Numbered from the whole stretch's first letter, positions 1,225 to 63,977 are shown. The stretch is DNA of 63,977 bases, filler included, from Reticulomyxa filosa (GCA_000512085.1; 18 parts of 18 records of this genome joined end to end with filler, not necessarily neighbours in it), one strand, 5' to 3'. Numbers and translations: made by a program. The notes: a model not told the origin generated them from the letters alone.

Positions 1225-1324
1225 NNNNNNNNNNNNNNNNNNNNNNNNNNNNNNNNNNNNNNNNNNNNTTAATTAATTAANNNNNNNNNNNNNNNNNNNN
1301 NNNNNNNNNNNNNNNNNNNNNNNN
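1225..1324. other. Artificial contig-joining linker (first of 17)
   Basis: 44 N + TTAATTAATTAA (stops in all six frames) + 44 N. Identical linkers at 7002-7101, 22166-22265, 23568-23667, 25307-25406, 28271-28370, 29713-29812, 35067-35166, 36642-36741, 37904-38003, 48276-48375, 51186-51285, 54648-54747, 56205-56304, 57697-57796, 60519-60618 and 61773-61872. Confidence 0.99.
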
Positions 1325-7001: not shown

Positions 7002-7101
7002 NNNNNNNNNNNNNNNNNNNNNNNNNNNNNNNNNNNNNNNNNNNNTTAATTAATTAANNNNNNNNNNNNNNNNNNNNNNNNNNNNNNNNNNNNNNNNNNN
7101 N

Positions 7102-16100: not shown

Positions 16101-19100
16101 CATCCCAACCATCATTTCCTTGCCTGCTGTTTTGTCCTGCGGCCGATCTCCACATCTGCGCGATTTCATTGACGGCGGCTGCCTGTTCACTGTTATTGAT
16201 TGTGAAGGCGCTCAGCACGTTCTGAGGATCGTCGAGATTCAAATGCTGATACGCCGCAAACGGGTCTTGCGCCTCGGCATCGTAGATATTGTTCACGTAA
16301 GCTAAGCTTTCGTCAGTTTGCGCAGCTGCGTCGCGGTCTTGTTGCAATCGCAAAAACTGCTCCCTTTGCAGCGCGTGCAATTGCTCCAGCTCCTGTGCCC
16401 TTTCCCTCGCTCTCTGCGCTGCTTCTTCCAACTGTCTCTCTCTTCGATCTAGCTACGTTTTGCACTTCACTTTCATGCTGTGCCAGCTGATCTGCTATCA
16501 CGCGTTGACTCTCCTCTATCTGCTGACTACGTAATTCTAATTGACCCAACAAGTCCGCTACCCGTGCATGGTTTATGCTTTCCGCGGCAGCACTTGAGCC
16601 TGCATTGGCATTGGCATTGGCATTGGCATTGGCATTGGCATTGGCATTAGAATTGGAGTTTGGATTAGCGCTTGCATTGGAATTGGAATTGGGGTTTGGG
16701 TTTGCATTGACATTGGCCTCAGGATTTGCATTGGCATTTGCATCAGGAATGGCATTCATGTTGGCATTGACATTTGCACTTGCACTTGCACTTGCGCTTG
16801 CATTTGCATCGGGATTGGCAGCATTTACATTAACATCATTAATTACGTGTAATCCACTCACCAAATCTTGGAAATCTTCAAATTCTGCAGAGTGTTGGCG
16901 AGCACTCATTTCCAAAACTGCTTGCATTTCCAAGTCCTCATCCGCGACCAGTGGGCTCGCGCCACGAAGATTACGACTCAACTCGAACAAATCCGAAGAC
17001 TGTGCAAAGTTGTTAGCAGCATACCTGCTGGAATACTGTCCAATTGCATCACTACCAAAATATCCCGCTGGCATTCACATACACACAAAAAAATTTAATT
17101 TTTATGAATTATCGTTTTGAACGTTATGCAATCTCTGCATCTACAACAAAAGAGGAGGAAAAAAAGGTAGACACATATAGACCTCCGTTGTTTTCGTTAT
17201 TTTCATTGTTTTCATTATTACTGCGATTGTCAAAATTACCCCAAAAAGCACGTCTTTGAAAAGCATTGTTATTATTGTTATTGTTGTTGTTATTGTTGTT
17301 ATTGTTATTGTTGTTATTGTTATTGTTGTTATTGTTATTTTATTGTTATTATTATTGTTATTATTATTATTATTATTATTGTTGTTTTCAGCGGCATTGT
17401 TACTTGCAACTCCAAGTCGAATCAATGAGTCCAACAGTCTTCTATCTCGAGCATCGTTATCAGCAGCCGGTGGGACTGGACTCGAGGATGATTCCGCAGC
17501 TGCTTCACGGCCGCTATTGGCATTGGCTCGGTTGGCCTGATACCTTCGAATAATGGCTTGCACCCCTGTCAATTCAGCTTGTTCTTGTTGAGCCTGCGCT
17601 TGTTCACGTTTCTATTACAAATTGAGTAAGAATTGTATGTTGTGTAATGTTCAGATATTCAAAGTAAGCACATGTTCGGAAATAGGATTTCCAAATACAC
17701 AAAATGGGATAACTGAGGGATTTTTTTTGTCGACGTTAGTCAAGTCGTCAATGAATTTCTGTTTTTTCGCTTCGATTCGGGATTCAAAGTCTTCCAAATC
17801 CTCCAATTCATTTGGTAGCAACGACGCCAATGCAATTAGTTTTCCCAATATTTCATCTGAGCATTTGTAGTATTTGCTGTGATCCGGCTCGGTCAATGTG
17901 ATCACGTGTTTTTTGACGGCTTTAATTATTTCATCATCGTTGCTTGTGTCATTGTCTTTTTTGCCTGATAATTTTTTCGCTGACGTCTCTGCATTTGCAT
18001 GTTTGTTGTCGTGTTTTTTAAAAAAAGGTATATCACTCCAATAGAACTTGTAAACATAAAAAGAGACGCGAAAAAGGCATAAAATTGTACAATAGACAAT
18101 GTATGCATATGTATGTGTATATGTATATTCATTTGGTTGCACGAATAGAATATGTCATTGCAAATTTGTAAAGTTGCTCTAAACTCAATTTCTTTAGTTT
18201 TCCCTTTAGCGCTTGGGCACTCTTGGCCGCAGCACTGATATCTTTGTTTGCTTGTGTGTCACTCTGTTTTGGTTTCAGAGTGTCTCTTTCTTCCTCGTTT
18301 TGTTGTTGCTTCAGTTTGAAGGCGACAAAGTAGTCATTCCTTCCAAAGAAATAGCAAATGAAATGGATTTTAGTTTCTTTCGAAAAAAAGGGAGTCACGC
18401 CTTCAATCTATTCCATGTTTTGTGCGGTGACTCAAGTCCAAATTATTACAGCGTGCAAAACAGCAAAAACGTACACTCCAAAAAATATATATGTAAAGAA
18501 ATAAATATGCATAGTTAGTGAATTACATAAATATAAACGCTCTTTAAAAAAATAAAAATAAAAAAACAATGGAAACTTCAAGTCTCTTTCGTGAGCGAAT
18601 CTTGGCTAAGAAAGCTCTTTGTAATATATCAAAGCGAGCGTCAATGAGATGATGGAAAGGGTCATTATTTCGCACCAAATACCCCATTTCTCGTTGCAAA
18701 TATTTGATTTGTTTTGTTTGGAATTCGTTGAGACGGTACATCACAGAGTGATTGGAATCCACGACAGCCTGTGAATTCACTTTGGCCTTGTCTTCCATTA
18801 GCTCGTCTTCTATACCATCGCCATGGCTGCTATGGCCTCGTTCGAGTTCACTTTCTTGCCATTTTTGTCTATTTCGTGTTATTTTTTTTTTTTTATTATT
18901 ATTTATCATTTATTGTTTGATATCTATTATTTATTGTTTGTTGTCGTTCTTTCTTTTGCACGTACGCACAAGCGTACAATACATGGTACATAAATAAAAC
19001 GCATCAAATCGATTATTGGATCACTCAACAAAAATGAGGTGGTGTTTGCTGCCACGAAAATGTTTCCGATATCTGCCAATTTCGCGCGTCGGGTTATTGC

Positions 19101-33598: not shown

Positions 33599-35010
33599 TT
33601 AAGGTTTATTGGACTGATTATCTTGTTTATCAGTACTCTGCTGCTGTTGTTGTTGTTGTTGTTGTTCTTGAGGATATCCATAAATTCTCTCTCCAATTTT
33701 GCGCAGCGACTTGGCCAAGACATCTCTGGCGGTTTTGTAGTCCTCGGGAGTGGACGCCTCGTTGTTACGCACGTCCCTGAGATGGGCAATGGCTTGGACA
33801 ATTTCGTGTTTGAGTTCGTCGCCAACCTGTGGTTTGAACTCTTGCAGTTGCACTTCGGCCTGCCAAAGTTCGGTATCGGCGGCGTTTTTGACCTCAGCAG
33901 TTTCTTTGCGTTTCAAGTCCTGCGCATGCATTTGTTCGGCGTCTTGCTTCATGCGCGCGATATCGTCATCGGAGAGTCCGCCGCTGGTCTGCACGCGCAT
34001 GGACTGGTCTTTGGCGGACGCAATATCTTTGGCGGAGACGTGCAGAATGCCATTGGCATCCAAGTCGAAGGACACTTCAATTTTGGGATGTCCCCTGGGA
34101 GCAGGGGGGATGCCAATCAAATCAAAGTGTCCCAAGAACTTGTTATCGATAGCCATTTCACGTTCGCCCTGATATACTTTGATACCGACTTGAGTTTGGT
34201 TATCAAACGCAGTGCTGAACAGCTCTGTTCTCTTTGTCGGAATGGCCGTGTTTTTATCGACGAGACGAGTGAACAGACCACCTAAAGTTTCAATCCCAAG
34301 TGACAGCGGAGTAACGTCAATGAGCACAACCCCTTCCAATTTGCCTCCCAACACTCCGCCTTGAATCGCCGCGCCCATGGCCACCACTTCATCCGGATTC
34401 ACCGACTTGGACGGCACACGTCCGAAAAATTTTTCCGCCACCTCTTGCACTTTGGGCATCCTGGTCATGCCTCCAACCAAAATCACCTCCGCAAGATCGG
34501 ACTTGCTAACACCGGCGTCTTTCAAACACTGCTCGCAAGGTGCCAATGTGCGCTGAATATACTTGTCCACCAAACTCTCAAAGCGTGCGCGAGTCAACTC
34601 CATGTCCAAATGCTTTGGACCAGTGGCGTCCGCTGTGATAAAAGGCGCGCTCAAGTCTGTCTTCATTGCACTCGACAACTCGATCTTGGCCTTCTCCGCT
34701 ACCTCCTTCAGTCGCTGCACTACCAACGGGTCGTGCAACAAGTCCACATTGTTCTCCTTCTTAAACTCGTTTCCAATGTATTTCAACAGCTCGTTGTCAA
34801 AGTCCTCCCCGCCCAATGCCGTGTCCCCATTCGTCGCCATCACTTCAAACACCCCTTCGTTCAACGACAAGATACTTATGTCGAACGTGCCTCCGCCCAA
34901 GTCGAACACCGCCACCGTCCCGTCCTTGCGCGGGTCGGCCACTCCTGAGTCCTTCCCTATCCCATAAGCTAAAGCCGCTGCCGTGGGTTCATTCAATACT
35001 CGTTTCAACC
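33599..35010 (-). CDS. HSPA9: Mitochondrial Hsp70 (mortalin/SSC1, DnaK-type), last exon
   Basis: [51 protein letters not shown] (mitochondrial/alphaproteobacterial type), [14 protein letters not shown]. No EEVD or KDEL. Preceded by an intron acceptor and ends in polyQ. Confidence 0.95.
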
Positions 35011-35166
35011 TAAAAAAAAAACCAATTAACGAAAAATAAAAATAAAAATGTATATATGTATATATANNNNNNNNNNNNNNNNNNNNNNNNNNNNNNNNNN
35101 NNNNNNNNNNTTAATTAATTAANNNNNNNNNNNNNNNNNNNNNNNNNNNNNNNNNNNNNNNNNNNN

Positions 35167-37903: not shown

Positions 37904-38995
37904 NNNNNNNNNNNNNNNNNNNNNNNNNNNNNNNNNNNNNNNNNNNNTTAATTAATTAANNNNNNNNNNNNNNNNNNNNNNNNNNNNNNNNNNNNNNNNN
38001 NNNTTTTGTACTTGTTTTTTCTCAGATCTCTAATGCATACATCAAATGCTCACATACACTTCCAATACAAATACAAAAACTTCCAAGTACATATAGAGTT
38101 ACAATTAATTTGATCCGCATATCAACAACTGTAGAACTCTTTACACTCTTTTCTTGAGCATCAGGTATACTTACAGGAAACCCGCTTTTTGTGCATCCAA
38201 CAGCATGTCTTTGAGAAGACACCTTAAAAAAGAAGCTCAAAGGAAGTCTTTAGTGCTTCTCTAAGCGTAGAAACTGTTACCTGTACTGTATTCTCAAAGA
38301 CATCACAGTAGTGACTTTGTTATCCGTTTTAAATCTGGATTTTGTCTCACGTTACAAAATAAAAGCAATAAAAAGAAAAACTTATGCCTTCCACTTTAAA
38401 GTTGTGCTACACAACAAATGAATAAAGTGCATATACCAAAACATGGTTATGTTTTTTTCTTCCGTGTTTTTTGCAAAGATCACTAAAAAGCTTAAAACTT
38501 TTTGTTTATGGCTTTTTAACACTTTTATTAATAATTTGTAGTATAATATATTGAGTAACTGATGATCATCCATTCACTGGAGTAATTTACTGACAACCGC
38601 TTTGAAGTCAAAGATTTTAAAAATATGATCTTGTTTTGGGTTTTCTGCCTTAAACCATTTTAGCATCCATAATGTATGTTTTAGTTAATATTAATTTTGA
38701 ACATTGATTTTTTTGTTTATCCAAAACCGGACATGGATCGTGTACATAAACCACAATGTCCAAAAACTCACAAGTTTTGTTTAGTAGTTAGCGTTATACA
38801 CGAGAAGAAATTGCAGCGTAGTGATTATCCTAAATCCAAGCAGATTTTGAAAGCAAAGTAAAAACAATGGTTAATTTTGTAAAAGTGTGAACTCCGAGTT
38901 TTTTTGCAGTAAAAAATTAATTCACATCCAATTTATTTTTTCTTGTTTTGTTGTCATTGATATAATGTAAGCAAAAATGTTCTTGAATTGATATT

Positions 38996-41295
38996 CTACC
39001 CCAATAATCGAATTGCTCCTCCGTAAGTTCCACAGCATAATGTATAACTATTACTCTCGTTTGTTTTGTTTTTTGCATCAAGCTTATTTACTGCTGAAGA
39101 AAACAGAAAACAATATATTCCTCCATCATCACCACCCCCTTTGATCATATGTAATTCCCTACCCGATCGAATATCCCAAAAACGAATTGTATTGTCCCAT
39201 GATCCAGAACATATTATATTTGCATTACCAATTCCATTGTTAACAATTGGTAAATTGTCAACACAGTTTACATAATTTGTGTGTCCTCTGAACATGTGAA
39301 TTTCTCTTTTAGATCGAATATCCCACAAACGCACTGTTTTGTCTTCTGATCCAGATAATATTATATTTCCACTGCCATCACTTGCAATTTCATTTCTGGA
39401 ATATTTTACACATCTTACTACATTTTCGTGTCCTTCAAAAACAGCTATTTCTTTGGAAGTTTCGACATCCCATAAACGAATAGTGTTATCCCACGATCCA
39501 GAGCAAATGGTATATCCATTACCCCCAATTATACCAATACTGTTGCTAGTGCGATTTTTGACATTATGCAATGGAGAAAATTCGACACAGCGGACAGTGT
39601 TTGTGTGTCCTTTGAAAACATGTGCTAGCTGATCTGTTTCAACGTCCCATAGCCGAATGCAGGCGTCATTAGACCCAGAGCATAAATATCGACCACCAGT
39701 AAATGATGAAAATTGGATACAATAAACACTGTTTGTATGTTCTTTCAACACCCGAAAGGCCTCCGAAGTGTCAAAGTCCCAAAAGCGAATTGTTCTGTCA
39801 GTTGATGCAGAACAAACGACAAGACACCTGTAGTTATGATAATGATACGGGGAAAATTTCACACAATATACATGATCCGAATGTCCATCAAACAATTTCA
39901 ATTGTCCATTGCCTGCAAAATCCCAAACACGAATTGTTTTATCTTTTGATCCAGAACAAAGGAATTCGCCACCATCAAGTGATGAGTAATCAATACTCCA
40001 CACAATGCTGCTATGTCTGGTAAAAGTTTTAAGTGTTTTCGCTGAATAAAACCAATCAAAGTTGACAGTGGATGAAGATCGATTATTGCACTCGTTTTGT
40101 TCTTCGTTTTTGTTTGCATTACACAATTGAGAAGCATTCTTTTTTTCCATCAACTTAGCTTCCATATCAGCCTGGAGTTTGATTATTTCTTGTTTATGCT
40201 TTTTCTGTATCTCTTTCATTTCTATTTCTTTCTGCAAAAGCTGGCTTTCTTTCGATTGGATAATTTGCGAATACGTTTGAGTATTTTCATTCATCTGCTG
40301 ATTTCCATTTTCTTGTGTCTGCTTTTTTTTTGCTTCAGTTTTGCTATCTTTTTTCAAGTTCTTAACTTCAGAAATTCTTTTAAGCTTATTCATATTTGCC
40401 CCCCCCCCCAAAAAAAAGAGAAAGAATAAATTTAGAGTGTGTTGAACATTTTTGTTTTTGTTTATGATTTATTCATTTGTTTGTTTGTTTTTAAATCAAA
40501 ACTAGATTTTCTTTTAGAAAAGTTAAATTTTCTTCGTCTTTCTTCTTTTGTGATTGCATCTCCAGTTTTAACTTTTCGTGTTGCGAATTTAATTGAATTG
40601 CTTCTTTCTGTTTTTCCCATTGTTTGCTAATTTTTAATTTCATTTCAAAAAAAAAAAAAAAAAAAAGCAAACAAGGGCTAAGCTTGAAGTAATTGTATAG
40701 TTTGTTGCAACGATGTAAATGACTTTATGACCAAATCAAAATGGAATTGCATCTTTGAGATCAAATGCTGTTGTAATTCGCTCTTATTACATGTGTGATC
40801 ACAACCAAATGGTTGAAACCAACATTTGGAAAATTGCAGGGAACAGGAGCTATTCAAATGATCGTCCAAGTCTTTTAATTTTCCACTAAAATTACATTTA
40901 ATTCCCTTTCCATTGCTCACTTGTTGTGAGTCTTGTGTAAATTGCAGTGGGCATATCACATCCAATTCGCCGATATACCGTTGTGCTAATCTACTTTTGG
41001 CATACTGGCAATGGTTATGAGAGCGAACTGGACAAGAATTAGGATTTGAATTGAGAAAACGCTTCAAACACTCCTCTCCAACAAGAAATGCCCCTTCCAA
41101 TTCTTGATGTTCGGTACAGCTTATCTCAATGGGATTGTTCGCAATTTGTCCACAAATCAAACAAATCAACTCGCTAATTTGAGTATGGTTGTTCGACTGT
41201 AAAATCCAGTTTTTGCTGAAACACTGTGACCGCTCTGGAAAGAAGGGATCCGTAGTATCCTCTTTTTTGATCTTTTGATTCTCTTTTCTGCTCAT
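38996..41295 (-). CDS. Complete TRAF7-like architecture protein: variant RING - TRAF zinc finger - coiled coil - ~7 WD40
   Basis: Exon 1 (41295-40684): CLIC..C.EH..VGEEC..CPV..H..C and VICP..CNFSGKL..HL..C..CWFQPFGC..HL. GC-AG intron 40683-40608, short coiled-coil exon, intron, then a last exon with GH..V....FS..CSGS.D.TIR.WD repeats ending at stop 38996. Confidence 0.9.
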
Positions 41296-41971
41296 CTTGT
41301 GATTGATTTCTTTTTATCTATCGATTATAAATCTTTAAATTTTTTTTTAAATTGAATGAATGTATCTTTCCTTGGTCTAGACCAACAGTCTCGAACAACA
41401 ACGTACAATGTAAAAACAATAAATAAAAAGAATAGCATATGGAAGTGTTGTCACTTTTTCTGTTTTTTTAATGTTTTTATTTTTTATCATTTGTTGGATT
41501 ATTAATATTATTTTGGCACTAACAGTTAAAAATAAAGTTTCCCAAATTGGATAAAATTGGAGTAAGTCTACTTTATTGAAAAAATTTTATGTGAAGATTG
41601 TGTAAAGCTCTTGCATAAAATCTTCATTCCACAACTTGTCACGCTAGCTGTTAACACATGTTATATTGAATGCACAAAAAATATTTTTATAGAGGATTAC
41701 GAAAGAAGAAAATGATTGAAATGTCAGGCTTGCAAATCGTAAAAGTCAAATAACTATTTCAAACAAAAAATTGTAACGAAAGTCTATTCAAGACAATAAA
41801 ATACCACTAGAGTAATAAAGTCGTACCACAACCAAAACCTATTTGCAATATTCGTTTTTTAAAACATACGGAAAAAAAACATCACTAACAAAAATCCAAT
41901 CATCATGTTCCAACAAAAGATGTATGCATTGTTGGACACACATGAGCAAAAAAGTAATAACAAAACCACCA

Positions 41972-44678
41972 CTAACGACTGTTTGGTGTAAAGACAATGT
42001 CGTACAAAGTTGTATCTTGACTTTCCACACAATACCATTCTCCTTGTTGATTTTTTCGAATTTTGTCTCGAATTTCACGTAACATTTGATTTAGCGAATA
42101 ATTTTTCTTGTGTGCCTCTGTCATTACAGCGTGCATACATTGACTCAACAGCGAAGCGTCGCTGACAAGATGTCCTTTAGTAGTTGACCAAATAGTTAAA
42201 AAACCATCGTCGTCATGTCCATGAAATTGTTCTGATTGAATATTTTCTTGGTTTCCTCTCACCACAACTGCACGTGATTTTGGTCTATTTCGACCTCGAC
42301 AAGCATCAACAATGAATATTTTGGGACAATCTTTTAATGCTGCCATTTCATGGCAATTGAAAGAAGCACGAATTTTGCAATTGATATATCATTGCCTTCA
42401 CTGGTAACTAACACATTTCCAATATCACCATGTCCACAAAGAATTATGATCAATGCATCATATTTGTTGGAATTTTCTCGAAGCTTATAATTGGCAATCA
42501 CTGCATCTAAAAATTCTTCCACATCTGGTTTCAGCATTTTCGGCGATTCATTACAGATGAAATCATATTTCAATTCATCTTTGAACAATTTCTTAAAGTT
42601 TTCGAGATCTCTGTCCTTCACATTTTCAAGATTAGGCCAGTCTGTCTCTTTGTTATATTCACTGATTGCAATCATTATCACCAATGCATTATTAATCATT
42701 TTCTTTTGTCCACAGTTTCTCCAAATTACTTTCAAAGTTGGGATATCCTTCTCAAAGGCCTTGCGGACATCTTCATCAGATTGGATGGCCTGCTGATCCA
42801 TATCAACAATTCCCAATTTCAAATTCTTTGTTGTTATGGTTTCAAAGTCGCTGTTTTCCAAGCAATGATAAATGCGACGAACCAATTCTCCATAGGTTAA
42901 TTCATCCAGATAAATTTTTGTTTCCTTGTCATTGACTATTACATGTGCGGCTGCCTTTTTAAAAAGTTTCATTTTTTTTTTTTTTTTTTTTAAATAAAAA
43001 ATATGTATGTGTATATGTATATATGTTTATATTTATTTATTTATGAAAAGATAAATGACTTGGCTGGACCCTTGGTTGTTCTATTCAAATGACCAAAGTG
43101 TGGTATTGTACGACCTCACTTTGCAAGTCGATACAGCAAAAAAAAGGTAAAAGGGGTGCAAAGTAAAATAACATCATCAAGTGAGCGATAGTAAATATAG
43201 GATTCAATGGTAATGCAAATGTCAGGAATGTTACCATCGTGCAGTTGATTTTGCCATTTGCTGTTCGTCAGCAGCCACATTGCAAACTCCGGCTGTGCCA
43301 GCTGTTCAAAGTTTGCAATAATTTCCGCTTTGTCAGTTTCACTTTTATCTTTCCACCATTTCATCCATTTTTTCTGTTCTTCCCATTTCTTTTTTTTTTT
43401 TTTTTTGTAAGTAGAAGATATCCACAATGACTTTTTTAACAAAAAAAAAAAAAAAAAAAAAAGTAAAAAGCAATGCATCCTCACAACTGTATTTTCATTT
43501 GAGCATGTCTTGAATGTCAAAGCTTCATATCCATTCCCCTCTTTCTCCTTTGTGACATCACTGTCTTTGACGACGTTGTAATCAGCCAGGAGTGTTTGGA
43601 CTTCGTCCTTGTCCAGCACTTGATTCACAGATACTCGCACGTGCGTCAAGACCATGTTGGGTCCATCACGTCCTCCGAGAACATGCACAAAGGTGTTGTC
43701 GGCGGTCAAAACGCCCGCACATTCAGTCAAAGGGAGCGACAGTGAGCATGAAAAATATGTCCACTTGCGTTTGGCGAGGGAAAACTTGTGGACGAATTTG
43801 GTGGCGATAGTAGAGTCAGACGAACCAAGCTCACCTTCCCACGCACGAAAGAACAGAATGACATCATTGACACATACATAAGAATAATGGTGATACGGTG
43901 CAATAGTCTCACAAATAGGCAAATTGCAAAATTGAAATGTGTGTTTGTGTTCCTCAAAATCAATGGCTAATCCTGTCTTTTTACAAAATAACACCATTTC
44001 ATTATTGAAATACTTCTGCTGCTGTTGATGCTGATGCTGATACTGATACTGATACTGATGTGCTGCTGTTGATACAAAACAATGATATCGTATCCAATCC
44101 TCATGAATTGGTAATGTGCTACGACTCACATACTGAAATGTATTCAGGTCAAATACATCGATATTCTTGGGATAATACGTGATAAACAACAAATGGCTTT
44201 GGCTTCCACCGATCACTGCACGCATTCCGGCAAAATCGTCTTCCTCTTTGCCAATGCGAATTTCCTTGTCTTCGCTGTCTGTCAATGGAATCCATTCGTT
44301 CCAACACTTGTTTACTATTGCTGTTGTTGTTGCTGTTGCCATCGTATCACTTCCTCTCTTGTCCCACACACTCACGTAATTCAACGTCAACGTATACTTT
44401 TGCTCATTTTTGTCGCCACCCAAACACAACAACGTCATGTCAGCTGCTTCTTTACTGCTTACACGCTTCACCACACAGTGTCCGTGCAACTTCATATCCC
44501 TTGGGTACGCGCAGATCCGCTTGCACTGCTTTGCTACTGTATTATACGAATAACACTCGTTGTTCTCGTAACTTCCACAAATCAGAATCTCGTCGTTGTG
44601 CACCACACATTGGCTAAGTGAAAGTGCTGATGGTAATGGGGGTAACGGTTCAAACGGAATTGTTGATTGGTTCCCCAT
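41972..44678 (-). CDS. Myristoylated kelch-like propeller - helical module - PB1-like - caspase-family (C14) fusion protein
   Basis: Exons 44678-43488, 43388-43173, 43080-43060 (21-nt microexon) and 42954-41972, all phase-0 GT-AG. MGNQST start. PB1-like DMDQQAIQSDEDVRKAF. Catalytic ILCGHG (~42431) and KIFIVDACRG (~42300). One-base frameshift in a T4 run at 42373-42376. Confidence 0.8.
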
Positions 44679-45959
44679 ATTCTTATTTATTCCTAGTTTG
44701 AGGCCAAAGAAAAAAGTGATGCAAAGATTTTTTTAAAAAGGGGGGGTAGAAAATTCAAACAACAAAAAACGTTCTTTTCTAGGAGCAGTTGAAATACAAA
44801 TCCTTTAAAGAAGTTATTTACGTATGTTTTTAAAAATGAACGTATTTGCTACAAAAAAAAGATCCGATTTGATATCCATTACTCCGATGATCTTTATTTT
44901 TTGCATATATTCAATAAACAATGCAAGTCGACAAATTGCCAACAAAACGTTTGCATTTGTAGCAAGTTAACTGACAAAAAAAAGGCACCATTTTAAAAAG
45001 GTGATCACCAACCAATAACACACAAGTTGTCCATAGTATATCCTTCTTTAGCCTTTTTTTGTTATTGTGTGTGGCTTCCAAAACTTCGATCAAAAAGACA
45101 AGCAAGTGGATGCTCAAAAGACAGGCAAAAAAGTGGAAAAAAAAAAAGAAAGAAAATAATAAAGTAAAATAACAAAATAAAAGACATACTCAAAGGACAC
45201 AAATATATGTTAAAAAGAAAGAGCAAAAATTGAAGTTGACCAACAAGTGCAATTTTTGGTTGTATGAAGTACAAGGATCTCCCCCTAGCTCCCCTCCATA
45301 GGCACAACACGGAAACAAAAGTAACACGTTGTTTGCAAAGATCCTCTGTGACATCATTCACAGCCTCGCCCCAGCTAAACAAAAAGTTTAAGAAGAACAA
45401 ACAAGGTTTCATACTACACAAAATGCATACCTACACACTCTCTCTTTCATTTTTTTCCCTCAACTCTTTTTTTTTCCATTTTCCCCCTCTTTCCCAAAAC
45501 GATGTGTCCCTCAAAGATAAAAAAAGAGCAAACGTATTGCTCCTTATCTCTCAGGGGCACATTCAAATAAAAATTTTTTTTTTTTTTATGACAATTTTTT
45601 TTTAAAAAAAAGAAAAAAAAAATGTCAAATCAAATGCAAATAAAAAAAACAAATAAAAAAAAATAAAAAAAAGTGGTATGATCCTTGTTCGATTTTCTTA
45701 GGTTTTCAAGATGTGCGTTTTTGTTTTTTTTTGTACACCTGATTTTTTTTTCAAGGTTTTTAAAGGTTAGAAACCTCAAAACCAATGCACACATATAATG
45801 AAAACCAATCACATTTTTCCTGACTTAAGACGAAAACAAAAAAAAAAAAAGAAATTGCACTTGTTTTTTGTTTTTTTTTGTCAGAATTGTAAACGATACC
45901 TTATTGGTAGTAGTAATAATAATAATAAAAAAAAAAGAAAAAGCGCCTTAAAGTGGAAA

Positions 45960-48275
45960 TCAGAGATCCACATCCATAGTTTCGATTGATTCTCCAGGGG
46001 AATGGGGAAAAGGAGCAAAGGCGTCATTGTGACTCCACGTGAAGGTAGTGTCTGAGGCGACACTCCTCAGCTCGTAGTTGTTGACGGAATCCATTTTCGG
46101 AAACCCATTTCCGCTGTTGAAAAAGGCATTGGCGTCGACGAGACGACCAAAGTCACTACTTACCAAAGGCAACGAATTTCGACTGTCAGTAATCAATGGT
46201 GGCAAACTCAAATTGCCAATACTGTTGTTATTAATAATGTTATTATTGTTGTGGATGTGGCTGTTACTGTTGTTCACATGGCTACTGTTACTATTACTGT
46301 GGCCGTTGTTCACACTGTTAGGAGTGAAGTTATTCGGGCCAAAAAATCCAAACATGTTTGGGAACGCAGATGGGGCTGGAAATGTGGACACGGCTGGTAT
46401 TTGGTGCAGCGCAGGGAACGAAGGAGGCAATGTTTGAGGGATGGGTTGCGACGGCATTGCCGGGTTGGAGAAACTTCGATGGAACAGTTGCTGTGGAATG
46501 TCACTCGCAAAGCCAAACAGGTTCGTGTTCGGGCTCATCATCCCGTGGACCGGGGTTGATGACTGGTTTTGCAACATTTCAAACCGCACACGTAGTGCAT
46601 TCAGTTCATTCAGCAAGGACTGCTGTGCTTGCTTTGATGATGCAATTTCTTCTTTCTATTTATATACAAGTGATACGGATACATATACATACATGTATGC
46701 ATATATGTATAGATATAAAAAATAAAAAAAAGAAGCGAGAGAGTGACTCACTATCGATTTGATACGCTCTTCGTATTCGGCATTTCTGGACTCAGCATCA
46801 CCACCACGACGATTGGAAACATGTAACTGTTTGCGCAGTGATGACATTTCCGAGTCCTGAAAATTTGTCAATTGACGAATCTTTGTATCCATTTGGTCCA
46901 TGTTGTCTTTCAGCTCTTTGTTGTCTTGGCGGAGTTTCTGCCAACAGTCTTCCGAACTTTTTTCTGTCTTTTCCTTTTTTGCTCTCCTTGCTTTCACTGA
47001 AATTAATGGCTCGTCACTACTGCTGTTGTCAAAGTCGTCATCATCATTTGCATTTGCATTTGCACTTGCACTTATACTTGCATTTGCATTGTCATTCGTA
47101 TTGACTTTATTCTTGTCTTCACCATCACCGTCACCATTACCATCATCACCAATATTATTATCATCCATACTGTCACCAATTCCATCGATAAACCCATCGT
47201 CAGGAGGACTTTCTGTGCCATCGTCTTCCTGCTTTATGATATCTACTTCACTTAGCTCCATTTCATTCTTTTCGTTCTTGCTTTTTTTGTCCACCTTTCG
47301 CTTCGATTTCTTTTCGACTTTTACTTTCACTTTCAATTTCGTGTCCACTACCTCTTTCATCTTTGTTGCGCTTCGCTTTGTAAATGGCAGGTTCAAAAGC
47401 GGATTTGCCATTCCCATGCCATGTTTGTTCTTTTTTTTAAAAAATTGTTTGTTCCAAAGGAGAGGGATCACAGAAAGGATTTCTCTCTCGTTCAAGTCAA
47501 ATGCCGTTGTTGTTCTTGGAAAAAAACAAGCAAACCTGTGTCTTGTACATTATGTAAAGAGCAAAATATCGATCTGACCATTTCTATCATCACATGTTTT
47601 TGTTTGTGTACGTAAAAAAAAAGAATTGGTATTAAAAAAAAAAATTCAATCCCCCTTTTTTTTTTTTTTTGAAGAACACATTAAATATCAAACCTTGTAT
47701 AAATCAACAAAGTATTTCTTGGCAGCTGTACCGTTTTCTCTCTTGTTTTTGGTCTTTTTCTTGTCTCTTTCTTTGTTGTGCACCCACCAATCACCACTTG
47801 AGTGTTTCTTGTTGCTGTAAACACCTTCGTTCAAAAATGTTCACCATCTTCGATTTTCGTTTTTGAAAGGAGTGATCACATATCAATGGACGACTACCAG
47901 AGCCGCTGCCAGAGCCTATTGTTCCTGTAATCGTTGCAATGAAAAACTATCGAAGATACATACACATAATAAAAAAAAAAAAAAGGGGGCCAAAACACAC
48001 AAAAAAAGTCATGTTCACCTCTAACCTATACACATTTATGTACATAAAAGATTTTTAAAAATCTACAATAAAACAAACAAATAAACACCAGCTTTGGCGT
48101 TAAAAGTTAAAGTTACCTCGCATTGCAAATAATTGGTCAAACATTCAATTCCTTCCGAGTTGTTTTCCAATGCGTGTCCGACCTTCCATGCGTACTGTCC
48201 GAACACAATAACAACAAACAGTAATAATGGTAACAACAATTTTCCAAGTGATTGTGAACAAATCGGAAAAAAAAA
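45960..48275 (-). CDS. Hypothetical multi-exon protein with acidic, coiled-coil and P/N-rich regions (5' truncated)
   Basis: ORFs 46656-47495 and 45960-46616 are linked by a (TA)-rich intron, with further short upstream exons. No family recognised. Confidence 0.55.
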
Positions 48276-48499: not shown

Positions 48500-51185
48500 G
48501 AAACAATGAAGAAATGAAATATCCTGATGATGAAGAAATGAAATATCCTAATGATGAAAAACGAGAGATCGAAAATATTGAATTGGACCAAAATAAACCG
48601 TGGAATGAAGCGAACAAGACAGCTCACACAATAGTTGAGCAAATGGTTAAAAAAAAACAGAAGGGAATTGTGGTTGTTTCAACCAATCTTGATCAACTTG
48701 CAAGACCAAATGGTCGATGGTTTTTTCAAAATATTCCTTTTACAATGATGATTAATTCAGATAAATATATGAAAGAAAAAAAAGTAATTCCACCATATGT
48801 CGTTTATTCATTCCATTCAAAAAATATCACATTTGATAATGTTACAATCGATGGATGTGTTTATGTTATTGATTGTGTGATTAATGGGAGTGGTCATTTT
48901 CATATTACCCAACACCTTATTCATACCAGCCAATCTGTTATTCGTTATAACTTTCAACGACATGTTTTCACTGTTTCATTGCCCATTGACTCAAACAAGC
49001 TTATGAAATCGGGAATAGATTTATATGAGATATCAAATTTCGATGAAGCAATTGCATTGATTCGTTTTGCACTTTGTTTCAGATTGCAATCACAAAGTAG
49101 TTCTGATATTGACGTTGCACACTCTTTTTACTGGTTAGGAAAAGCATATAATGAGAAAGGAGAATTTGACAAATCAATTGAATATCACAAAAAAGCATTG
49201 ACAATAAGATTAGATAAATTGGAGCCAGATCACATTGACATTGGTGAGTCATACAATATGTTGGGAATTGCCCACGACAATAAACGAGAATACGACAAAG
49301 CACTTGAATTTTATCAAAAAACGCTAGTCATTTGGTCAAAAAAATTAGACAGTAGTCACAGTGATGTTGCTGATTCTTACAATAATTTGGGAAGAGTCTA
49401 TTATATGAAAGCAGAATATGACAAAGCATATGAATATCACAAAAAAGCATTGGACATTTATTCGCAAAAATCGGACGAAAATCAAATAAAGGTTGCCATT
49501 TGCTACTGTCATTTGGGAAATGTTCATTATAGAAAAGGAGAATATCCCGAATCAATTGAATGCCACGAAAAACACTTGAAAATTTCATTAGAACAATTAG
49601 GTGAAGATCATACAGATGTTGCGGCATCGTTTATTAATTTAGGAAAGTCATATTTTGAAACAGGGGAATATGAAATATCGATAGCATATCATGAACAGGC
49701 ATTACAGAAATTTGATGAAGCGCATGCATTTGTTGCAATATCATTGAATGAATTGGGATTGGTGTGGATAAAAGGAAAAATGCAAATAAATAAAGCTAAA
49801 GAATATGTCGACAAAGCTTTGGAAATTTTGATCGATGATAAGAGCAATGACTTTGATTTAGAGCTTGCAAAATCTTATGATGTGTTGGGATTGATATTGG
49901 AAAAAGATGGAAAATATGAAGAAGCAATCCAATCTTTTGAAAAATCGTTGGAAATTAGATTTAAAAATCTGAATGATAATGATCCTTATATTGCTTGGTC
50001 TTTTCATTATTTGGCAAGTGTATTCAAAAATAAGAATGATTTGGATAAATCAATTGAATATGGAGAAAAAGCTTTGAAATTGAGATTAAATAAATTAGAT
50101 TGGGATCATCCACACGTTGGTGAATCTTATATTCTTTTAGGAGATATTTATCTTGCAAGAGGAACCAAAACTAAAGCAAAGAAATGTTATGAAGATGCAC
50201 TCAAGATTTTTGATAAAAGGTTTAGTGAACAACATCAAAAGACAGTGCATGTGAGATTGATATTGGAAAAGATCAATGAAGTTTGATTATCTATTTTATT
50301 TTATTTTGCTGTTAATTTGTTTAATTTTTGTACTTTTCAAAAAAAAATAAATAAAAATAACAGCAACAAGCATATATCATTGTGGATGAAACGAAGGAAT
50401 TGATAAAACTGAAAGGCTTAGTATATGAAGAGTTAATTCAACAGATTTATTCTTGCTTAAATTTGCAATCTTTTAAAAAAATGCAACAAGAGAATTTGAC
50501 ATTTGATTTAGTTGATATGAGGGACAATATTATCGACTCAGATGAAGCAGTTCAACAATCATTTATGGTGGAAAAACCTTCATTTAAAATACGTTGGAGA
50601 CCAATAATAAGTGGAAAATGCAAGATAATAAAGAACGCATTAGTTGTGATGATTGCAATTAGTGAATATACTGATAAGAAAAAATATGGCGATCTTTCAA
50701 ATGTGAAAGACGAGGATGTCAATAATTTCAAACAATTATTTGAACAAGAATTGAATTATACATTTGTGGTCAATGAATCTCCACAAATGACAAAAAAAGA
50801 GGTGCGATCATTTTTGACCAAATTCATTGCAAAGTATAAACTTCATGCTAATACTCGCAAATATGATGGACTGATAATGATTATTTGTGGACACGGAGAG
50901 AAGGGAAATATGTTAGTGACGAGTGATGGAAAATCTCTATCAATTGACGAAATACGTGAATTATTTGGTTGTGATGTACTGGAATCTTTCAAAGATCTTC
51001 CAAAGATATTTATCATTGATGTGTGTCGTGGTGAAACCAGTCCAACGGCTCACTCAACAACAAGTACGAGAGGAAAGATACAAAAAAAGGAAACCGTACA
51101 GTCGTTGGGACATAGCGGTGACGGATTTTTGACCATTTGGTCAACTATATCAGGATATCAAGTTGCAGATTTTTCATTGTTGAGT
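48500..51185 (+). CDS. TPR-array - PB1-like - caspase-family (C14) fusion protein, truncated at both contig ends
   Basis: About ten 42-aa TPRs (DVADSYNNLGRVYY.K.EYDKA.EYHKKAL.I) up to 50280. Phase-0 intron 50281-50363 (GTTTGA..AACAG), then in-frame QQAYIIVDETK..DMRDNIIDSDEAVQQSF..ALVVMIAISEY..IICGHG (His 50892)..KIFIIDVCRG (Cys 51024). Confidence 0.8.
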
Positions 51186-52701: not shown

Positions 52702-53385
52702 ATTTCTTTTTTTCCAAATCTTAAAACAAACACTAAATGAACTACAAAAGTTGCTTTTTTTTTAAGAACTCAAAGGGGTACTGTTAAAACTCAATCTGCT
52801 GTGTCCAAACAACTTTGTTTTTGCGATACAATAATTGAGAAAAGCTTTGTTTCTCAATCATTTGAAATATATTTGAGCATATGGGTCAGAATAAATTACA
52901 AGCATGAATATGTACAATTGATCGCAAAAAAAAGACACTGACCAATCCAAACTCTTACAAATATGTGTAATTTTATTTATAAAAAAGTAGCCTTTTCTGA
53001 ATTTGTATTTTAAATGAGATCAATAAGTCACGGAAACTCCAAGAGTTACAAAGTTCAAAAGTTTCCACGTTTTGGAAATTTCTTTGTGATTATTTTTTTA
53101 CTTTCGCGGAAACGCTTTAAAAAAAGAGAGCAAAAATTGTTTATACTTATTTTTCAACTTGGTGAAACAACTACTTCTTTTTCAACAACACTTATAAAAG
53201 TTTTTCTTGCACTATAAAACTAAATGTCATCGAATATAAATTGCCATGAACAAGTAAAAGTCCAGAAATTTTTTTCTTGAAATAGGAAATAATATTTATC
53301 CCACGAGAAATTTAAAAGAAAGGGGACCGGAAGAGCAGACAGGGGGGTCAATAATTAATTTTTCATACATATTGGTTAAAAAAAC

Positions 53386-54647
53386 ATGTCTAATAGAAGA
53401 GCAGACGATTCTTTAGCTTCAGGTGGAGGAAAGCAGGCAGCACTTTCAGAAGTGCTAGGTGGTGAAGTACGAGAGAAGCGTTTACCGCGACGAGCTCGTG
53501 ATGTTCAAAACAAGGCCGCTGCGCCACAGCAAATAACAGCCGAGCAAATATTACGCGAGGCACAAGAGATGCAATTTGAGAAGGAAGTGGCACCTCCTCG
53601 ACAGCAAATAACAGACACCGAAGAATTGAAATTATATAAACTGCGCAAAAGAAAAGAATTTGAGAATATTTTAAGAAGACAACGAATGAGTGTGGGAGTA
53701 TGGTTGAAATATGCACAATGGGAAGAAAGACAAAAAGAATTTGAGCGTTGTCGAAGCATTATGGAAAGATTGTTATGTATTGATCATCGTAATCATACGA
53801 TTTGGATAAAATATGCTGAAATGGAAATGCGAAATAAATTTATTAATCGCGCAAGAAATGTATGGGATAGAGCAGTACAATTATTGCCAAGAGTGGATCA
53901 ATTGTGGTATAAATACGCTTTAATGGAAGAGCAATTGCGAAATTTCGAAGGTTATTATTTTTGTGTAAGTATTATTATTATTATTATTATTTATTTGTTT
54001 TTATTATTTATTTGTTTTTATTATTTATTTTTTATAAAAAAATAATCTTTAAAAAGGGGCTAGAGGTATCTTTGAACGTTGGATGAAATTCAATCCTGGA
54101 GAAAAAGCATGGACATCTTATATACATTTGGAAATGCGAAGTGCAGGGAGTAAAGCGGATAAAATAATTCGTTGTCGAAAAATTTATGAAAGATTTGTAA
54201 AAGCTCAACCAAAATTAGATAGCTATATAAATTATGCACAATGGGAATTAAAACATGGAAATATAAATGAAAGTAGACATGTATATGAACGAGCAATGAA
54301 TGAAATAGATAATGAAGAATTGACATACGAATTTTATAAAGAATTTGCACAATTAGAAATTAGTGCAAAGGAATATGAACGTGCAAGAGTGATTTATAAA
54401 TATGGTATTGATAATATTCCTAAATATAAAGCATATGAATTATTTCAAGAATATATTAAATTTGAAAAACAATTTGGAGAAAAGAGTTCAATTGATCAAG
54501 TTATCTTTAATAAAAAAAGATTTGAATATGAAAATTTGTTACAAGAAAATCCACATAATTATGATATTTGGTTTGATTATTTAAAAATGGAAGAAGAACA
54601 TATTATTACAAATACAAATGCAAATATGAATACTACTACTACTACTA
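53386..54647 (+). CDS. CRNKL1: Crooked neck / Clf1 / Syf3 pre-mRNA splicing factor (HAT repeats), 3' truncated
   Basis: VQNKAAAPQQITAEQILREA, PPRQQITDTEEL..YKLRKRKEFE, WLKYAQWEE, RARNVWDRAVQLLPRVDQLWYKY, NPHNYDIWFDYLKMEE. One intron ~53951-54057. Confidence 0.97.
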
Positions 54648-54793
54648 NNNNNNNNNNNNNNNNNNNNNNNNNNNNNNNNNNNNNNNNNNNNTTAATTAAT
54701 TAANNNNNNNNNNNNNNNNNNNNNNNNNNNNNNNNNNNNNNNNNNNNTTTTTTTTTTTTAAAAAAAAAAAAAATAATAATAATAATAATAAAG

Positions 54794-61106: not shown

Positions 61107-61772
61107 ATGAATATCAATGGCGTCAAAGCAGAAGAAATGGCAATAAATAATGTTGACTCTCTTTTTGAAACATTGGTTCCTTTGCCAACTCCACTTCGTC
61201 TTACCCAGTGTGTTGTACACGGACATGAAATTCTCATTTGTGGAGGTGGGGAAATAAAAACATGTTTTTCATACCATACACTCAAAAACCAGTACAAATT
61301 GATTTGTTCCTATCCAGAAGGGATTGAAATGGGCCATTGTGTGGTGAAAAGACTGTCTCCAAGCACAAATGAGTTAACATTATTGTCATTGAGTGGACAA
61401 GACCGAGAGAAGCAAAAGTATGGATTTGTAATGAAATATAAAAGCGTTTGGGACAATGAAGGTGAAAATCAAAAAGAGAAGCAGTACAATGAATGGATGC
61501 CATTTACTGATAATAGCAACAAATTAATAACAATTGGCAAAGATGATGATTGTCATTTTGGGTTACGTGGAGTGATTGGTGGCAGTGATAATCATTTGTT
61601 GTTTATGACTTATTTTCCCAAGAATATTGACGTGTTTAATTTGAATACATTCCAATATGCAAAGCAAGAGATGTTGCCAATGCGTAACGGGAACAGGGTA
61701 CATTATCATTGTTTTGTATCAAAGGCCAAGCATGAAATGCTGTTGTTTACTTTTAATACTGGGTTATCAATA
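61107..61772 (+). CDS. Kelch-like beta-propeller family protein, paralog of 43488-44678 (3' truncated)
   Basis: FETLVPLPTPLRLTQCVVHGHEILICGG..CFSYH..GHCVVKR..YKSVWD..GVIGGSDNHLLFMTYFPKNIDVFNLNTFQY..YHCFVS aligns with the propeller of the caspase fusion gene. Confidence 0.8.
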
Positions 61773-61872: not shown

Positions 61873-63977
61873 CAGTTGTTTATCAGTCAAATTCGTTGAA
61901 ATTACTCCAAGTGATTTTGCACATGAATTACGAACATCTTTATCTTTGTCTTTCAATCCATCGATCAAAGTATGAATTGCATTTTCCAGTTGTTTATCAG
62001 TCAAATTCGTTGAAAATACTCCAAGTGATTTTGCATATGATTCGCGAGTATATTCATCTTTTAATCCACTTATCAAAACGTTGATAACTTTTTCCAATTG
62101 TTTATCATTCAATTTTGTTGAAATTGTTTCAAGTGATGTTTTACATAATTCACGAATACATTTATTTTCATCTTCTAATCCATTCAAACATTCGAAAACA
62201 TCATCCAAATGCTTTTTGTTTAATTTTATTGAAAGAAATCCAATAAATTCTGCATACCATGTATGATTCCATGTACTGTTATCTTTGAGTCCGTTGATCA
62301 AACATGTGACAACAGAATCGATTTGTGTTTCATTCAATTTCATTGCAATTCCTTTAAGTAAATTTCTAAATATAAAATTATCATGTCCATTTATATTTTG
62401 AAATCTATCAATCAAATATTGAACAGTAATATCCAATTGTTTATCATTCCATTTCTTTGAAAGTGTTACAAGTGATTGTACACATGACCCCCGAATATTC
62501 TCATTGCTATCTTTTAATCCATTTATCAAACATTGAAAAGCATCATCGAAATGTTTTTCATTTAGGTTCACTGAAATTTTTCCAAGTAATTCTGCACATT
62601 TATCACGTAAATTTTTATCATTATTTTTATCAGTGAATATATGCATTGAAGAGTTAAAAGCTTCATTCAATTGTTGTTCATTACATTTATTTGAAATTAT
62701 TTCAAGTATTCGAATGCACTTGATACGAATATTTGGATGTTCATTTTTATCATTTAACTTATCCATACAATAATTCAATGAAATGTTTATTTGTTTTTCA
62801 TCCAATCTCTGTGCAATTCCATAAAATAGACAAATACCTTTGGATTCACTAATGAAATAATTAAAAGCATTATCGAATTGTTTCCCAGACAATTTCACTG
62901 TAATTGTCTCAAGTGCTTCTCTATACTCCCAATAATAATCCTTATTGAGCATGTCTTTTAAAGAATTGAAGGCATCATTCAATTGTTTTTCATTCCATTC
63001 CATTGAGAGTTTTCCAAGTAATTTTGCGTATTTTCTACGATTATATTTATCTTCCTTTTCATCGGATAATTGATTAATCAAACATTGAAAGATATCATTT
63101 AATTGTCTTTCATTCCATTTCATTGAGAGTTCTCCAAGTAATTCTGCGTAGTTTCTATCTGTCTTTTCATCGGATAATTGATTAATCGAATATTGAAAGA
63201 TATCATTTAATTGTTTTTCATTCCATTTCATTGAGAGTTTTCCAAGTAATTCTGCGCAGCTTATACGAAAAAATAGATCTCCCGATAATCCATTAATCAA
63301 ATATCGAAAGACATCATTCAATTGTCTTTCATTCCATTTCATTGAGAATTTTCCAAGAAATTCTGCGCGACTTTGACGATTATATATATCTCCCTTTTCA
63401 TCGAATAATTGATTAATCAAACATTCAAAAAAATAATCCAATTGTTCTTCTTTCAAGTTCAATATAAATTGAACCGCACCTGTATGATCACCATAAAAAT
63501 ATGAAGGACGCCTATGAATGAAATATTGTAATGCATTATCCAACTGTTTTCCTCCCAATTGTGATGAAATCGTTGCAAGTGCGTGTTCACATTTATCACA
63601 AAATTTAATTTTTCCATTATCAATCTTATCAAAGGCATTCATCAAACATTCAAACACTTTATTCAATTGTCTCTTATTCAAGTTGAGTGCTATTTTTAGA
63701 ATTAATTGTGCACATATTATATGATTATCATCAAATCCATCCATGAAGAATTCAAAAACATCATCTAATTGTTGTTCATTTAATTTCACTGATATCACAC
63801 AAAGTAAGCCTGCACACGTTTTATTGTGTTTTTTAAAAACTTGTTTGTAACATTGGACAACAACATCTGAAGTTTCTGTTGAAATACACAAATACTGTAA
63901 TAAATTCAATCGATCTTTTATTAATCCCTCATCATCAAGTGCATTGAATTGTGTTTGAATTATCTTAATTTGATCGA
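61873..63977 (-). CDS. HEAT/ARM-like tandem-repeat solenoid protein (both ends outside contig/window)
   Basis: About 17 units of ~36-41 aa (LG.IS.KLNEKQLD.VF.CLINGLKD....VR..CA.. type), intronless over 2.1 kb. Confidence 0.85.

Follow-up and report, generated by a model that had tools for sequence, protein, structure and literature searches.

A foraminiferan protein family joining exchangeable N-terminal modules to a caspase-fold protease of predicted Arg/Lys specificity

A 63,977-nucleotide stretch of DNA from Reticulomyxa filosa (GCA_000512085.1), hereafter the window, consists of contig pieces joined with N spacers. On one 10,272-base piece (38004-48275) lies a gene for a kelch-type propeller, a Trp-rich helical module designated as W, a beta-grasp domain designated as U, and a caspase-fold protease (Table 1). 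The locus belongs to the caspase-like proteins already reported from R. filosa (P0037 corresponds to RFI_29694). Within its family it is unremarkable, and it may be a dead copy; the value of the analysis is carried by the family, not by this locus.

Table 1. Features of the kelch-protease gene and of a second family gene in the window (single positions are the first base of the codon).
Feature	Position	Strand	Description
Exon 1 (1191 nt)	43488..44678	-	MGNQST N-terminus, six-repeat kelch-type propeller, acidic/low-complexity tail
Intron 1 (99 nt)	43389..43487	-	GT-AG, phase 0, stop-free
Exon 2 (216 nt, symmetric 0-0)	43173..43388	-	72-aa Trp-rich four-helix module (W)
Intron 2 (92 nt)	43081..43172	-	GT-AG, phase 0
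Candidate microexon (21 nt)	43060..43080	-	NNQGSSQ linker; optional for the frame
Intron 3 (105 nt)	42955..43059	-	GT-AG, phase 0
Exon 4, first part	42700..42954	-	PB1-like beta-grasp domain (U), SDE acidic patch
Exon 4, second part	41972..42699	-	Caspase-fold protease
L1 Leu	42630	-	
Alpha-1 Asp	42609	-	
Catalytic His	42432	-	
A4 run with frame break	42373..42376	-	One base short; catalytic His and Cys on either side
Asp at Cys-2	42307	-	
Catalytic Cys	42301	-	
Linker Arg-Gly	42259	-	
L5 Asp	42160	-	
Second family gene (P0172), next contig piece	48514..51185	+	TPR exon, PB1-like + protease exon; cut by the contig end

An earlier note on this DNA had read the start as MGNQST from the ATG at 44678, had called the three introns GT-AG and phase 0, and had described a Trp-rich helical domain of about 72 amino acids (aa) as an exon of its own; all of this was borne out. 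The exons of 1191, 216, and 21 nucleotides (nt) are stop-free on translation and give the kelch region, the 72-aa W, and NNQGSSQ. The proposal that each module is its own exon is right for the kelch region and W, but the PB1-like domain and the protease share a single exon. Of the four exons, only the 216-nt and 21-nt ones are truly symmetric, as the outer two are terminal. At the locus, Pfam recognized Kelch_6 weakly (E 4e-4), and Peptidase_C14 in both halves of the protease (E 1e-3 and 9e-13).

Intron 1 has a length divisible by three and no stop, with an alternative phase-0 donor at 43484 and acceptor at 43374. The public model P0049 translates straight through it, and its poly-T/poly-A content is not present in paralogs such as P0012, P0007, and P0028. 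At the position of intron 2, read-through paralog models often give Val and then an F/L-rich run; a crude read-through test at the ends of W flagged 17 of 47, several of them falsely, with Val first in 9. The 218-nt gap has three phase-0 mini-exon candidates, the microexon being the best, but skipping it keeps the frame. Scored against 18 hand-picked paralog linkers (one of them empty), it is equalled by 45 of 1499 non-coding 7-mers, and its NQG fits the pattern NQ[DEGN] found in 9 of the 18 linkers versus none of the 1499 7-mers. W is joined straight to U in some paralog models (P0024, P0028, and P0178).

The public annotation splits the locus into P0049 and P0037; each matches the window at 100%, the former over 459 aa and the latter over 181 aa. 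Kelch-W and PB1-protease would then be two separate genes, as is also annotated for P0054 and P0004, which have adjacent locus tags. The W frame indeed runs into a stop 57 nt inside intron 2, and 18 nt ahead of the 42954 acceptor there is an ATG in frame. However, P0049 begins at an internal Met and translates the poly-T/poly-A intron, and P0037 relies on an invented gap, which removes a conserved stretch and by which the frame break of Table 1 is avoided. All four modules are within one model in ten paralogs, single-protein fusions of kelch and C14 are known in other foraminifera, and the TPR gene in the window has the same acceptor with no Met ahead of U. A two-gene structure is considered highly improbable.

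At least 46 caspase-fold genes are present in R. filosa, 41 with U and 26 with W. The matches in one family search were all from R. filosa (47/47), as were 119 of the 120 matches listed, out of 211, in the other, the kelch search. Module profiles on 298 proteins revealed the arrangements kelch-W-U-protease (10 proteins), kelch-W-W-U-protease (1), kelch-U-protease (2), TPR-W-U-protease (2), TPR-U-protease (1), and forms led by a TRAF-type zinc finger (2), and 112 of the proteins classified in this way were kelch-only. One Ras-led protease form and one HSP70-W-U were also found among R. filosa gene models, which are ab initio models, so that rare fusions (Ras, HSP70, and TRAF) could be mis-joins.

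Wider matches amounted to 1088 representatives at E 0.001. Among 30 that were looked up, 13 EukProt proteins are from Bolivina argentea (10) and Nonionella stella (3), which we take to be foraminifera with transcript-derived protein sets. Kelch and C14 occur in one protein in P0235 and P0283 of B. argentea, and also in P0185. Other domains fused to the protease in wider relatives are MATH+SAM, kinase+RGS, GGACT, and Atg3-like. A related locus was not found in two metagenome scans. Two protease-like domains in tandem were observed in the relatives P0218, P0241, P0243, P0248, P0260, P0265, P0276, P0277, P0279, P0288, P0293, and P0295, one domain of the pair often lacking catalytic residues; such pairs are possibly built-in heterodimers.

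The protease is nearest to animal caspases 3, 8, and 9 in both sequence and fold. The fold comparison used the model of the paralog P0024, with a predicted local distance difference test (pLDDT) score of 90. VIA gave Z 27 for caspases (root-mean-square deviation 2.2-3.7, about 218 residues aligned), Z 21 for MALT1, and Z 13-18 for metacaspases. The Peptidase_C14 matches and the caspase-haemoglobinase fold of this model place the family in clan CD family C14.

The accessible text of PMC4357240 gives Arg (L1), Gln (L4), and Arg (L5) as the residues of caspase specificity, and describes MALT1 as acidic on alpha-1, L4, and L5. These positions were counted in 47 R. filosa domain matches through the columns of a hidden Markov model, using covered columns only. 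Leu or Ile replaces the L1 Arg in 42/42 domains, alpha-1 carries Asp in 37/42, and Asp is found at Cys-2, the position of caspase-3 Gln161, in 42/42. At the L5 position Gly+5, 31 of 35 domains have Asp and none has Arg, in a register that is inferred: the fifth residue after this Gly is Arg in caspase-3, but HMMER puts that Arg207 in an insertion. In the 13 Bolivina and Nonionella proteins, Leu (13), alpha-1 Asp (13), Cys-2 Asp (12/13), and L5 Asp/Glu (8/12) are found, and the His/Cys dyads are kept in 13/13 along with the S1 residues and the linker R-G. The basic S1 pocket of caspases is thus absent, and acidic residues are found on alpha-1, L4, and, in this register, L5, as in MALT1.

The L4 loop is disordered in the P0024 model (residues 294-307). 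In caspases, L4 is the site of Asp cleavage, according to the accessible text of PMC4357240. The dipeptide [RK]-G is present in L4 of 35/38 R. filosa members (against a mean of 11 and a maximum of 18 in 1000 shuffles) and of 51/74 further relatives (shuffle mean 16, maximum 27), and D-[GSA], which would represent the caspase site, was seen in 0/38 R. filosa members. The proteins counted are relatives of common ancestry, and neither the residue counts nor the linker counts are independent. Because the acidic S1 pocket and the [RK]-G linker independently agree, the protease is predicted to cut after Arg/Lys, not Asp, and to mature itself at the L4 R-G as caspases do at Asp.

The use of these proteins as outgroups for animal caspases implies a true Asp-specific apoptotic caspase instead. 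Animal caspases 3, 8, and 9 are indeed the best sequence and fold matches, DACRG is similar to QACRG, and published trees put animal caspases and the proteases of R. filosa together (PMC5982838, in its accessible part). But the three basic-pocket residues are all replaced, with Gln to Asp in every domain and no Arg at L1 or L5 G+5, the L4 motif is [RK]G and never D[GSA], and CARD/DED was not found by Pfam in the family members scanned. An Asp-specific enzyme is regarded as very unlikely. The term "caspase" used in the earlier note is right for the fold and probably wrong for the specificity; as a specificity label it was rejected, the S1 pocket being acidic.

The family shares with animal caspases the His-Gly and Cys dyad, a disordered L4 with a cleavage-like motif, and a long pro-region as in initiators. 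It differs in the S1 residues (Arg/Gln/Arg in caspases, Leu/Asp/Asp plus alpha-1 Asp here) and in the pro-region, which is CARD/DED in caspases and kelch/TPR/other + W + PB1-like here. The likeness to MALT1 (C14B-P) consists of the acidic alpha-1, L4 (Cys-2), and L5, a caspase-like core, and probably activation by dimerization. However, the structural match to MALT1 is lower than that to caspases, and Ig/death Pfam domains were not found in the family members scanned. Metacaspases (C14B-M) resemble the family in its predicted Arg/Lys specificity, and the L-x-G-x(3)-D register of the Bolivina/Nonionella relatives resembles what we take to be the metacaspase motif. Metacaspases have an eight-stranded sheet and are monomeric and Ca-dependent. 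Their fold match is weaker than those of caspases and MALT1, and they are kept monomeric by a two-strand extension, which does not appear in the strand list of the P0024 model, as judged by secondary structure. MALT1 does not need L4 cleavage, as far as the accessible text of PMC4357240 tells, whereas the family here conserves the L4 R-G.

The kelch assignment follows from repeats with GG motifs in six predicted blades. Among 122 R. filosa paralogs, entropy is at least 3 bits in 22 of 308 low-gap propeller columns. Seventeen of these 22 fall within the 47 DA/BC-loop columns of the six blades (Fisher p 1e-11) and none in 24 AB-loop control columns, the DA/BC windows having been set by motif after the entropy track was viewed, from sequence and not from a propeller model. 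The hypervariable columns often alternate with invariant residues. For comparison, 2/231 protease columns reach 3 bits. Kelch domains bind through the face made by their DA and BC loops (PMC3597819, accessible part). This pattern is a strong lead, not proof, that the propeller has diversified for ligand recognition on its DA/BC face, and the hypervariable face would likewise support the sensor protease supposed in the earlier note.

The same variability is also compatible with substrate selection. The propeller would then be an exosite with which each paralog brings its own substrate receptor, and the Arg/Lys protease, constitutive or regulated in another way, would cut what the propeller binds. 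The kelch DA/BC faces of BTB-kelch ligases select substrates (PMC3597819, accessible part), and most kelch paralogs are protease-free, as expected for generic adaptors. On the other hand, caspase/MALT1-type folds depend on dimerization platforms from N-terminal domains, according to the accessible text of PMC4357240, and the PB1-like domain is retained beside the protease in 41/46 R. filosa members. The exosite explanation is the main rival, but it is rather unlikely.

The W module folds as four helices in its model (pLDDT 91). It has no usable Atlas match, no Pfam match, and no Foldseek match at E 0.001; the best VIA Z is 5.3, with unrelated helical proteins tied, and there is no clear known fold. 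Death-fold, SAM, and Myb/SANT relationships were weighed, and the comparisons speak neither for nor against them. U is a beta-grasp domain, for which the PB1 domains of MEKK3, p62, Par6, Bem1, and TFG (Z 7.6-8.0) are tied with FERM-F1 and ubiquitin-like domains in the range Z 7.5-8.0. An SD[ED] acidic patch is found in 34/42 members. The hallmarks of PB1 are the OPCA motif and/or the invariant strand-1 Lys. The OPCA motif D-x-[DE]-G-D is present in 0/42 U domains, of which U keeps just the SD[ED] half; the strand-1 Lys is also missing, and Pfam PB1 was not among the 25 families listed, out of 28, for 40 members. Judged by the modeled fold, "PB1-like" is a fair label for U, which may have an oligomerizing role.

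The second family gene in the window bears on how these modules were joined. Its TPR exon ends with KINE, and after an 83-nt phase-0 intron (50281-50363) the frame resumes with QQAYIIVDE. The acceptors at 42954 and 50364 are both phase 0 and at the identical codon (AAAHVIVND here versus QQAYIIVDE), each two codons ahead of A-[HY]-[VI]-I-V. The W module is not present in the TPR gene. Paralog introns were compared as DNA for two genes, both in the window, and the shared acceptor is good support for module exchange. The region of about 170 aa ahead of the TPRs in this gene opens with short tandem repeats and has no Pfam match.

Across paralogs, W is lost or tandemly duplicated. The tandem duplicate was observed in P0007, P0065, P0169, P0177, and P0216, as expected of a symmetric exon. 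A tree of the 22 protease domains whose N-terminal module is known requires six changes of this module, the minimum being three; it did not include 30 rows with an unknown N-terminus, distant foraminifera, or the long-branched P0052, and P0004 was labeled kelch via its adjacent locus tag. Approximately unbiased (AU) tests were against a single clade for the kelch bearers (p 2e-13), TRAF (0.017), and TPR (0.041); they were picked after an earlier 60-row tree had been viewed, which included distant foraminifera and had long-branch problems. Exon shuffling, as the earlier note proposed, is supported by the identical phase-0 acceptor behind TPR, the loss and duplication of W, and the AU rejections of single clades. 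Three phase-0 introns by themselves were rejected as evidence. Roughly half of introns are phase 0, and three such introns would arise by chance about 1 time in 8. Such introns alone are weak evidence because phase 0 is the commonest intron class (PMC11347168, accessible part).

The proteins are best read as a foraminiferan family in which an exchangeable N-terminal module is linked via phase-0 introns to a constant PB1-like/caspase-fold cassette that works as a clustering-activated Arg/Lys sensor-protease; the probability of this reading is put at about 0.6. The propeller of each paralog would bind a different ligand via its DA/BC face. Ligand binding would cluster the protein with the aid of the PB1-like and W modules, and a myristoyl anchor may assist the clustering in members starting with MG, such as this copy. 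The protease would dimerize in the manner of initiator caspases and MALT1, trim itself at the R-G in L4, and then cleave targets after Arg/Lys.

Several points weigh against this reading. Ligand, substrate, and activity are proposed from sequence and models, and the splice junctions of the locus are predictions from the DNA alone. The split public annotation, the ab initio nature of the R. filosa architectures, the missing PB1 hallmarks, the ambiguous L5 register, and the motif-based DA/BC windows have been described above. An MG start is found in only 3/11 cassette-bearing kelch proteins. The catalytic dyad, intact in 31/39 R. filosa domains, is broken in 8/39. Among 128 propellers compared, that of this copy diverges most (45% identity to the nearest paralog, below the 127 others), and two of its kelch GG motifs are degenerate (ICGS and FFRA), which fits decay.

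The earlier note expected a spliced protein of about 830 aa, a length that was rejected, and overlooked a one-base frameshift in this copy. The last exon, 983 nt long, loses its frame in the A4 run, after the catalytic His and before the Cys, and tblastn of paralogs shifts from frame -3 to -2 at 42376/42373. As assembled, the spliced frame runs for 682 aa to a stop and does not include the catalytic Cys; one extra base gives 803 aa. The His-Gly and Cys of the dyad are both encoded, in different frames owing to the frameshift. The scores of the two protease halves are close to the median of the paralogs, in a profile that contains the paralogs and so favors them. Nearest-paralog identity is 66% and 70% for the halves and 47% for U. 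Because the halves are this similar to a paralog while propeller and U are far more diverged, the lineage of the copy is old, with both sides of the break constrained until recently. A sequencing under-call in the homopolymer has slightly better than even odds, and a recent pseudogene falls slightly short of even.

In another explanation, the locus would be a dead pseudogene without a meaningful function and the family mostly debris of runaway duplication. The frameshift between His and Cys, the degenerate GG motifs, and the divergent propeller are in line with this. Dead copies are evidently common in the family, as the 8 broken dyads indicate, and out-of-frame tails end several paralog models by eye (P0177 and P0045). 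However, the lineage is old and its 2.4 kb have a single lesion, which lies in a homopolymer, the protease halves keep scores near the paralog median, and Bolivina and Nonionella relatives preserve the S1 residues, the dyad, and the R-G of the linker. The family is under selection, although this copy is possibly dead, and the debris explanation is quite unlikely.

The consensus for N-myristoylation is Met-Gly-x-x-x-Ser/Thr, which MGNQST satisfies, and myristoylation of this copy is plausible from its sequence. N-termini were counted in 103 of 138 kelch-bearing proteins, after 35 without a recognizable first motif had been dropped. An MG start is found in 30 of the 103; all 30 are MGN, 20 of them have Ser/Thr at position 6, and none of the 30 has a Cys near the N-terminus. 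Stable membrane anchoring generally requires a second signal besides the myristoyl group, and residues 2-16 of this copy include no Cys and no basic residue (Lys or Arg). The membrane-tethered protein of the earlier note thus agrees with the motif, but it lacks a second anchor and most kelch paralogs have no MG; tethering of this protein is weakly supported. A weak, reversible membrane association in a subset of the family is possible. Myristoylation as a family-defining feature was rejected, given 73/103 counted kelch paralogs without MG. A hydrophobic C-terminal tail was observed behind the protease in the foraminiferan or other relatives P0215, P0226, and P0236, possibly a membrane anchor distinct from myristoylation.

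Caspase homologs of R. filosa were reported and used to argue that the last eukaryotic ancestor already had caspases (accessible parts of PMC5982838 and PMC10565124), and caspase-like proteins of R. filosa are outgroups in the accessible parts of PMC10959488, PMC11463336, and PMC11251625. Yet the active sites of these proteins predict the opposite specificity, and the origin of Asp specificity becomes testable. The acidic pocket, the [RK]-G linker, the kelch/TPR/W/PB1 architecture, and the variable propeller are undescribed in the accessible text of the open literature on R. filosa caspases, subscription papers and the supplements of PMC5982838 being outside the search. The word "kelch" has no occurrences in the accessible text of PMC5982838, Reticulomyxa is not mentioned in PMC11121540, and searches of the open literature found nothing linking Reticulomyxa filosa with kelch and nothing since 2015 on Arg/Lys foraminiferan caspases; papers combining caspases, kelch, and PB1 in protists appeared unrelated from their listing. 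The acidic S1 and [RK]-G linker are new here, as is the concentration of propeller variability on the inferred ligand face.

In Rhizaria, a large sensor-protease family of this kind, hypervariable and assembled by exon shuffling, would be a candidate recognition system of a protist that lives freely. By analogy, it may be likened to NLR-type immune receptors in its large paralog number, hypervariable repeat face, exchanged sensors, and protease effector; the NLR-type receptors have a nucleoside triphosphatase (NTPase/NACHT) switch, whereas here the kelch propeller is fused directly to the protease. Foraminifera may have independently evolved an innate-immune or non-self repertoire of hundreds of kelch propellers that diversified on the ligand face, a subset of which was joined by phase-0 exon shuffling to a dimerizing, self-processing Arg/Lys caspase-fold protease. 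Being the nearest relatives of caspases outside animals, the enzymes would then indicate that Asp specificity arose later than the caspase fold and L4 maturation. This idea is tentative, with the odds somewhat against it.

Elsewhere in the window, a further kelch-family member lies at 61108-61772 (+), without an MG start and ended by the contig end. Just downstream of the gene, 38996-41313 (-) contains an open reading frame (ORF) of TRAF-type zinc-finger and then a WD40 ORF, and a second TRAF-type ORF is at 686-1276 (-). TRAF-type zinc fingers lead the protease models P0041 and P0184, and WD40 repeats occur in the kelch paralogs P0113, P0124, P0154, and P0166. The TRAF-type and WD40 occurrences suggest a wider shuffled toolkit. 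The region 61873-63977 (-) is repetitive and apparently coding, HEAT/ARM-like by eye, in pieces under 120 aa. Also labeled by eye are a multi-exon gene of very large size that contains SPRY/CUB-like stretches at 7050-18154 (-), an Hsp70 ORF at 33599-35110 (-), and a crooked-neck-like HAT-repeat gene at 53380-54703 (+).

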